Virus record (IMG/VR): IMGVR_UViG_2579778535_000007
Source of the DNA: a virus
Taxonomy: Duplodnaviria; Heunggongvirae; Uroviricota; Caudoviricetes
Direction: 5' to 3' (one strand)
Length of the DNA: 21,210 nucleotides
Below the pieces are notes generated by a model, which searched no databases, was not told where the DNA came from, and saw only the letters and a list, made by a program, of their open reading frames with translations. This document shows, in pieces, positions 11,303 through 12,861 of this stretch; within the stretch, counting starts at the first letter, position 1, and the number at the start of each line of letters is the position of its first letter. A program made the position numbers and the translations under genes.

Positions 11303-12198
11303 GTAAAACAACACCGACTAAAGACAGTATTCGTGCAGAGTTTGAAGAGCTTGTCGAGAAAGATTCATTCTGGTCGAAGTTTGTCGGCTCTCAATTTGTC
11401 TCGATGCTGACATTGTTTATTACCCAGATTGTCTACAGGTGCTTTCAGTATGCCGATGCGGCACTGGCTGAAGGCTTTATATCGACCGCGACGCGGCGTT
11501 CCTCTATCCTGGCAGCGGCAGAAACGAATAGTTACGTTGGTACCAAGCCAACACCGTCATCCGGGATGGTTGAGATCACAGCCACAAGTGAAGATGCTCC
11601 AGCGGTAATCCCCAAAAACACGCCTTTAATATCTGACGACCAGTACCCTTACATGACTATGGATGTATGCAGGTTGGTTGACGGCACCGGTACGGTAGAA
11701 GTGGCACAGTTGGAAATCCAGGAGGTGACATATACCGTTACGGCAGCCAAAGAATTTCTGGAAGTCGTGTTATCAAAGGCTCTCACTGCTGTCTGCTATA
11801 AGCTGGAAGTATTCGTGACGACCGATGGTAAGACCACGCAGTGGTCTTCCAGCACAATGTTCCGGTTAGCTGGTAGTAAAAGCCAGGTCTACGTTGAGTT
11901 TTATAAACCATCCGAACAGTTGGGTGTTCGATTCGGCGATGGGCTAATTGGGCAAATACCGCCAGAAGGCTCGACAATTACGCTTAAGGTATGGTGCACC
12001 AACGGCGATATAACCCTGGTTGCTGGCCAAAACCTGACGCCTGTCGATTCTGCGGCTAATTTAGCTAATTTGATTTCAGTTAAGACAACGACACCTATAA
12101 CCGCAGGTACCCGCTGTTTCCTCCAGCAAAGCGATTCGCGCTTCAGCATCTGCGATCTTGGCCATTGCTTCGAGGTGGCGGCCCTGGCTTTCGAGTAG
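11299..12198 (+). CDS. Baseplate J-like protein (BplA-like), 3' end probably aberrant or truncated
   Basis: ATG overlaps the upstream stop (ATGA). Follows the gp25-like gene as in contractile-tail baseplate modules. The last ~40 codons run antisense through the 3' end of the converging protease gene (overlap 12076-12198), so the true end is uncertain. Confidence 0.45.
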   Translation: MSKTTPTKDSIRAEFEELVEKDSFWSKFVGSQFVSMLTLFITQIVYRCFQYADAALAEGFISTATRRSSILAAAETNSYVGTKPTPSSGMVEITATSEDAPAVIPKNTPLISDDQYPYMTMDVCRLVDGTGTVEVAQLEIQEVTYTVTAAKEFLEVVLSKALTAVCYKLEVFVTTDGKTTQWSSSTMFRLAGSKSQVYVEFYKPSEQLGVRFGDGLIGQIPPEGSTITLKVWCTNGDITLVAGQNLTPVDSAANLANLISVKTTTPITAGTRCFLQQSDSRFSICDLGHCFEVAALAFE

Positions 12199-12861
12199 TG
12201 CAGTTTCCAGTTCTGCCGTACGCTCTGTCGCCTCCACCATCATTTCCAGTTCAGCCATTTTGCCGTAATGGGATATAACGGCCTGCACTGACTCGTCGGA
12301 GTACCCATGCGCCGCCAGGGACTCTGCCAGTAAAGATTTAGAATCCGCGCTTTCAAACATTCCGGCGCTGGCAGGATGATCCAGACTGATATAGTTCGGC
12401 GTTGTCACATAATCCACACCATGGAAGCTGGTGGTTACAGCGATTTTCCCGGACTCACGCCCGCCAGTGGCCCAGCTCCAGCCACCAGCTCGGCTTTCGA
12501 TCATCGCGGCGACAATTTTACCCGGCTCTGTGTTAAGAATTTCCTGTGTATGGGTAACGATGCCGTTGTCGTCAACGGATATAGCTACTGTGCGGCAAGC
12601 TGGAACATTGTCGATAACGACCGGGCGACCTTCCACCATGATCACGCTGGTTTCTGGTACTTCCAGTTTGCCGGTCAGCTGTCGGCGACCGTGACCGTAA
12701 TAGCCGAAAAGCTCACCAAGGCGTAAACCTTCCTGAGTTTCCTTGCTTTCAAGCATGGTCTTTACCGCGCTTAATACATACTGTCGCCCGTTCTGGCGAC
12801 CTTTTCTAGCATTACTATAGAGACAAAAGCGGTCAGTGACCGTTTTCAAAACATCAGTCAT
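12076..12861 (-). CDS. pro: Prohead protease / scaffold-like head-processing protein (Pro-like, 261 aa from the ATG at 12861)
   Basis: Immediately downstream of the portal gene; its ATG overlaps the portal stop by 8 nt and has a GAGGG Shine-Dalgarno. C-terminal coiled coil ([45 protein letters not shown]) is typical of scaffold domains. The protease call is positional. Confidence 0.45.

Follow-up and report, generated by a model that had tools for sequence, protein, structure and literature searches.

A microhomology-bounded deletion scar joins bplA to pro in a defective P1-like phage-plasmid

Results

Two truncated genes converge in P1-like DNA

The DNA that we analysed (the window; 21,210 nucleotides) is the whole of a short-read draft contig, AYQQ01000068.1, of GCA_000503395.1. 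By its sequence, it is part of a P1-type (Punavirus) phage-plasmid of an enterobacterium, as about 18 kb of the 21.2-kb window aligned to P1 (NC_005856) at 96–98% identity in four collinear blocks by blastn. Two open reading frames (ORFs), a truncated bplA and a truncated pro (bplA′ and pro′), face each other near its middle. The features referred to throughout are as follows, in window positions:

494–3929: block 1, equal to P1 51585–48142, with repL, kilA, ant, icd and c4 (blastn)
5306–12111, plus strand: left arm, equal to P1 46628–39823, the late operon pmgC–tub–pmgB–sit–pmgA–bplA′ (blastn, 98.4%, gapless)
5308–5326, plus strand: late promoter LPsit, 18 of 19 bases conserved relative to P1
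11299–12198, plus strand: truncated bplA (baseplate wedge, gp6/J-like), residues 1–271 of 477 authentic, then a 28-residue tail
12076–12861, minus strand: truncated pro (head processing protein), residues 1–251 of 339 authentic, then a 10-residue tail
12102–19118: right arm, pro′ and prt (minus strand) and darB′ (plus strand); blastn match 12102–19116, equal to P1 19773–12759 (98.3%, gapless)
12108–12111: deletion junction 1, TACC microhomology (base-by-base comparison with P1, pSA186_4 and p91)
14606–14624, minus strand: late promoter LPpro, driving pro′ and prt, identical to the P1 sequence
14639–19126, plus strand: truncated darB (anti-restriction methyltransferase/helicase; ORF list and protein alignment)
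19116–19118: deletion junction 2 in darB, ATA microhomology, 1,994 bp lost, with a frameshift and a stop at 19124–19126
19116–20127: block 4, equal to P1 10765–9754, with the darB 3′ end, ulx and lxc (blastn)

Many genes of the window have kept the lengths of their P1 counterparts. This is so in the late operon and for prt (pmgC, 188 amino acids; tub, 203; pmgB, 293; sit, 1,140; pmgA, 118; prt, 569) and also towards the two ends (repL, 281; kilA, 266; icd, 73; ulx, 146; lxc, 82), and ant1 encodes 344 amino acids here versus 347 in P1. The immunity and lytic-replicon module of P1-like phage-plasmids (C4, icd–ant and kilA–repL) is present; the plasmid maintenance module (repA/oriR and parAB/parS) falls beyond the ends of this 21-kb contig. 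Rfam identified the C4 antisense RNA (69.6 bits) together with its a1b1 targets, at 3648–3733 and 3802–3854 on the minus strand; with the C4 RNA and the a1/b1 sites intact, the immI immunity circuitry looks functional.

Several other observations concern the regions around these blocks. Between blocks 1 and 2 (3930–5305), in place of the P1 superimmunity genes simA/B/C, the window has unrelated ORFs at 4213–4734 and 4738–5277, the latter with a DUF5384 domain. Plasmids commonly have this variant of the sim region: at least 80% of 3930–5305 is covered, at up to 99.9% identity, by 166 PLSDB plasmids. Within the window, kilA and ant1 are paralogous in their C-terminal ANT/KilAC domains, with about 67% nucleotide identity (1512–1781 versus 2474–2743), and cross-matches between the two genes recur between the window and P1, pSA186_4 and p91. 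The left end of the window lies in a hok/sok locus, with a sok antitoxin RNA at 25–199 on the minus strand (Rfam, 114.9 bits) where relatives carry a hokD annotation; this locus is likely the repeat that broke the assembly. At the other end, positions 21149–21210 are the terminal inverted repeat of IS26 (GGCACTGTTGCAAA...), a 62-base stretch with matches in more than 5,000 plasmid records. Between lxc and this IS26 end, in the position that mod/res takes in P1, is an AraC-family HTH gene (20170–20805, minus strand).

The convergent pair itself comprises two entries of the ORF list. The plus-strand ORF at 11299–12198 encodes 299 amino acids and is bplA′; the second entry spans 12076–12891 on the minus strand and, when read from the ATG at 12861, encodes the 261 amino acids of pro′. 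This ATG is the equivalent of the P1 pro start, and here, as in P1, pro and the end of prt have 8 nt in common. A first-pass annotation of the window had described bplA′ and pro′ as overlapping by about 120 bp with neither an intergenic gap nor a terminator, and had suspected that the extreme C termini of both proteins derive from a junction. Measurement bore this out. The ORFs overlap by 123 bp (12076–12198) and leave no intergenic space, and the sole terminator-like match touching the junction, on the minus strand at 12111–12090, is weak (three G–C pairs) and lies within native bplA sequence. A promoter and terminator scan of 11000–13200 returned nothing meaningful at the junction. Aligned to P1, BplA′ is identical or nearly identical to BplA through residue 271 and then continues into 28 unrelated residues, which are pro read in antisense; Pro′ matches Pro through residue 251, apart from K248E, and then continues into 10 unrelated residues, which are bplA read in antisense. 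Each broken ORF thus runs antisense through its partner to a chance stop, which accounts for both the 123-bp overlap and the two short nonsense tails; the overlap has no significance of its own.

Full-length P1 BplA, a baseplate component of solved structure (PDB 9ay5/9vzk), comprises a Gp6-like_1st and a Baseplate_J domain (residues 219–409) in Pfam. Truncated BplA keeps Gp6-like_1st, and the Baseplate_J match is gone. Full-length P1 Pro matched no Pfam family above threshold and had no meaningful PDB sequence match, and in PHROGs it falls in P1-specific families only. The first-pass label of 'protease' for pro therefore agrees with the P1 gene name and finds no protease family behind it in Pfam or among PDB sequences; as far as these searches go, 'pro' and 'protease' are genetic nomenclature only.

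The database names of both proteins also deserve comment. One of the PHROGs families of Pro is labelled 'tail fiber protein', which is likewise the RefSeq product name for P1 pro, and many NCBI plasmid records name BplA orthologues 'bleomycin hydrolase'. Given the PDB entries for BplA and the genetics of P1, both names look like propagated misannotations.

bplA and pro are joined at a 4-bp microhomology

To place the join at base resolution, we compared the window with P1 and with two intact phage-plasmids that are more closely related to it than P1 is, pSA186_4 (NZ_CP022733.1) and p91 (NZ_CP023381.1). On the bplA side, identity to all three continues through ...GCAGGTACC, ending at window position 12111; on the pro side, it begins at TACCCGCTG..., at position 12108. 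The first-pass annotation had put the breakpoint between 12050 and 12200 and had proposed an alignment against P1 and P1-like genomes to find it, and this alignment located it within that interval, at 12108–12111. The two arms have only TACC in common, and an extended comparison (CGC.G.TACC) matches at 8 of 10 bases. A microhomology of at least 4 bp would be expected by chance at about 1.6% of random joins (probability approximately 0.016). Within 300 nt on either side of the two parental breakpoints, the longest exact word common to both flanks is 8 bp, which excludes homologous recombination as well as the collapse of a repeat by an assembler. The junction consists of bplA and pro sequence only, with no IS end, lox site, or foreign or filler base.

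We considered whether a recombinase or a transposable element might have made this join, by IS1 or IS26 adjacent deletion, by Cre acting at a cryptic lox site or by Cin acting at cix-like sites. P1 carries IS1, cin/cix and cre/lox, and the contig itself holds an IS26 end at 21149–21210. An adjacent deletion mediated by an IS leaves the IS at the junction, however, and none is found there, the only such sequence being the IS26 inverted repeat at 21149. The 13-mer arm of lox was unmatched across the window, and by eye the breakpoint flanks agree with the lox arms at 5–8 of 13 positions, which is about the level of chance. Both breakpoints fall within coding sequence and have TACC alone in common, and the second scar described below bears the same microhomology signature with no element there. 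An origin of this kind is therefore highly unlikely.

A KpnI/Acc65I site (GGTACC) occupies 12106–12111, at the join. We rejected in vitro construction as its source: bplA itself carries the site in P1, pSA186_4 and p91, the pro side has no compatible restriction site, and the junction of this draft assembly is found again in a second run, one SNP apart. We judged the site to be coincidental.

The intervening block is absent from the window

In P1, the joined points are 20,059 bp apart, and the corresponding distances are 22,431 bp in pSA186_4 and 16,654 bp in p91. According to the P1 annotation, the lost interval comprises the 3′ 88 codons of pro, lydE, lydD, lyz, ssb, isaA, IS1, isaB and hxr; the darA operon (ddrB, ddrA, darA and hdf), lydB, lydA, lydC and cin; and the invertible S/U fibre segment (C segment), R, gene 16 and the 3′ 206 codons of bplA. 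No part of P1 19768–39826 aligned anywhere in the window by blastn, and the tail-fibre genes (R, S, U and cin) and lysis genes (lyz and lydA–E) are absent from the 21-kb window in the same comparison. As a consequence of the join, the late operon under LPsit and the one under LPpro now stand head to head.

These results agree with much of what the first-pass annotation had proposed. It had given the P1 map as bplA followed by tail fibre genes, cin and lysis genes, and pro followed by lyz; the P1 annotation indeed has gene 16, R, S, U, cin and lyd after bplA, and lydE/lydD/lyz after pro. It had reported the fibre, cin and lysis genes as missing, and none of them occurs anywhere in the window. 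Its reading of the site as a recombination junction that had removed a large block matches the 20,059-bp gap in P1 that blastn leaves between the arm ending at 12111 and the arm beginning at 12102.

The junction recurs in a second assembly and in no complete replicon searched

To determine whether other elements carry this arrangement, we searched with positions 10900–13000 by megablast. The arms were found, at 98–100% identity, in phage records (n = 21, including P1, P7, RCS47 and SJ46) and PLSDB plasmids (n = 494). The query split into two places in every record, one matching query positions 1–1212 (sit–pmgA–bplA) and the other 1209–2101 (pro–prt). The arms did not occur as one continuous place in any of the 21 phage records, the 494 PLSDB plasmids or the 489 complete E. 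coli genomes that hold them. A 31-mer and a 23-mer spanning the junction had no match in collections of genome, viral and metagenome contigs. One complete plasmid that matched a single arm, pTHO-010-4, was considered and set aside: with pro, lyz and ssb all intact, this plasmid has no comparable deletion at this end.

The junction does occur in a Logan contig of run ERR4843236. This contig, of 18,449 bp, corresponds to window 2729–21177, contains both junctions 1 and 2, and differs from the window by one mismatch over its whole length, at position 20707. The two assemblies, which come from different pipelines, traverse both junctions unbranched, from which we infer that no intact copy lies alongside in either sample. 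By exact-protein look-up, the truncated BplA′ and Pro′ proteins were found only in the window contig and in one Logan run.

These observations bear on three alternatives to a genuine deletion. The contig might be chimeric, joining distant parts of an intact P1-like plasmid. Its origin as a short-read draft, and the lack of the junction in every complete genome and plasmid searched, would fit such an artefact. Against it, a different run assembled by a different pipeline has both junctions, with its lone mismatch elsewhere, and the 4 bp common at the join, among exact words of at most 8 bp within 300 nt on either side, leave nothing for a de Bruijn assembler to collapse. Because an independent assembly has the same junctions and the arms share just 4 bp, misassembly is very unlikely, and it is excluded as far as assemblies alone allow.

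Alternatively, bplA and pro might be short and convergent by nature, this being how the genes are ordered in an intact P1-like lineage that has diverged, and the first-pass annotation had named such intact relatives as the observation that would overturn its reading. None was present among the 21 phage records, 494 plasmids and 489 E. coli genomes. P1-like elements are mosaic, as the replaced sim region at 3930–5305 illustrates, and direct support for a native order was nil. Up to the junction, where the identity stops, the flanks are 98–100% identical to those of ordinary P1-like elements; the truncated BplA lacks Baseplate_J; and the exact truncated proteins are confined to the window contig and a single run. 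We regard a native origin as scarcely conceivable.

The third alternative is that the block was moved by translocation or inversion to another place in the replicon or genome, leaving the gene set complete but rearranged. Our view is that of one 21-kb contig, and a displaced block could lie beyond it. Even then, neither bplA nor pro would be made whole or functional again, both assemblies cross the junction unbranched, and a clean microhomology join is typical of a simple deletion. We consider such a displacement most improbable.

A second microhomology join truncates darB

The window has a second scar, in darB. DarB is 1,495 amino acids long here versus 2,255 in P1, with about 1,492 residues preceding the frameshift. 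Compared with P1 and pSA186_4, junction 2 seemed to contain two bases that were unaccounted for, and these could be third-position variants, synonymous with the parental codons. Among PLSDB plasmids, p91 matches the left flank through 19118 and carries the predicted parental variant, and with p91 as the reference junction 2 is a clean ATA join with 1,994 bp deleted. The predicted variant was not found among the viral contigs scanned. We found no mobile element, lox or cix at this site. Both assemblies contain junction 2, and none of the 554 PLSDB plasmids with a match to its left flank does.

Discussion

A probable single-step deletion in a P1-type element

We read the feature as an ordinary deletion scar, left by a known process in a P1-like phage-plasmid that is defective and was recently inactivated. 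We propose, with a probability of about 0.9, that a single-step, homology-independent deletion of roughly 17–22 kb in a P1-type phage-plasmid joined bplA to pro at TACC. A point in bplA would have been joined to a point in pro at this 4-bp sequence in one step, and we infer from the microhomology alone that the join may have formed by RecA-independent illegitimate recombination. A double-strand break repaired by microhomology-mediated end joining is one candidate route, and a slipped or template-switch replication error is another. A second deletion, of 1,994 bp at the ATA microhomology, has truncated darB. Two clean microhomology joins without IS, lox or cix, together with the P1 lengths of the other genes, point to recent RecA-independent illegitimate deletions; it is the full-length state of every other gene in the window that argues for a recent event.

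After these deletions, the element would be unable to build baseplates or fibres or to lyse the cell, and would remain as a plasmid or a defective prophage. P1 genetics predicts this loss of function: the first deletion takes indispensable baseplate, fibre and lysis functions, so the element should be unable to make infectious particles or to lyse its host.

We also considered whether the two lesions might represent the selected domestication of an IS26-bearing P1-like element into a harmless plasmid lifestyle, in which the head-to-head late operons silence each other by convergent, overlapping transcription. On this account, one deletion would take all of the lysis and adsorption functions as well as darA, ddrA, ddrB and hdf, and the other would disable darB. 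We think it improbable that the lesions arose in this manner. A weaker variant of the same idea holds that one of the fusion ORFs may have gained a function.

The value of the scar as a deletion lies mainly in annotation; specialists would find nothing surprising in it, and it raises no new question. Annotations should label the ORFs at 11299–12198 and 12076–12861 as pseudogene fragments, of bplA and pro respectively, and treat darB in the same way. For the element as a whole, 'defective P1-like plasmid' is the appropriate class, in place of phage-plasmid or inducible prophage.

Comparison with known systems

On either side of the junction, the window resembles P1 (NC_005856), pSA186_4 (NZ_CP022733.1) and p91 (NZ_CP023381.1), with 95–100% nucleotide identity and the same gene order. 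It has repL, kilA, ant, icd, the C4 RNA, pmgC, tub, pmgB, sit, pmgA and bplA in common with them on one side, and pro, prt, darB, ulx and lxc on the other. Unlike these elements, it lacks 16.7–22.4 kb between codon 271 of bplA and codon 251 of pro, and 1,994 bp inside darB. It also differs from P1 in its sim region, which is the DUF5384-containing variant common in other P1-like plasmids. In contrast to a functional P1-type phage, its BplA stops matching after 271 of 477 residues and lacks Baseplate_J, its Pro after 251 of 339 and its DarB after about 1,492 of 2,255.

The joins themselves resemble those of illegitimate deletions in E. coli, where microhomology-mediated, RecA-independent events are well established: both are clean, with 3–4 bp of common sequence, no filler and no mobile element. 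End joining after a break or a replication template switch could account for them; a span of about 20 kb, as at junction 1, is long for simple slippage. The classical P1-related plasmid p15B of E. coli 15T− is a further candidate for comparison, alongside the defective P1-derived plasmids.

The loss of tail, lysis and regulator genes is reported to have turned P1-like phage-plasmids into plain plasmids repeatedly (Pfeifer and Rocha 2024, PMC10879196). Such replicons are no longer able to complete a phage cycle, and many of them have gained oriT, mob or resistance genes. That study described 38 closely related plasmids without lysis, tail or regulator genes, many of which carry resistance genes, and many defective P1-derived plasmids are associated with IS and resistance cargo (PMC10879196). 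Unlike those plasmids, the window has a pair of breakpoints that occurs in no complete plasmid, phage or genome that we searched. Like them, it has lost tail and lysis genes, and its contig ends in IS26, whose inverted repeat at the right end fits their IS and resistance-cargo setting. A deletion of such scale is an ordinary route by which a P1-type phage decays into a plain plasmid, and the window adds to this route (PMC10879196) a cleanly resolved example, with base-pair breakpoints at a 4-bp and a 3-bp microhomology.
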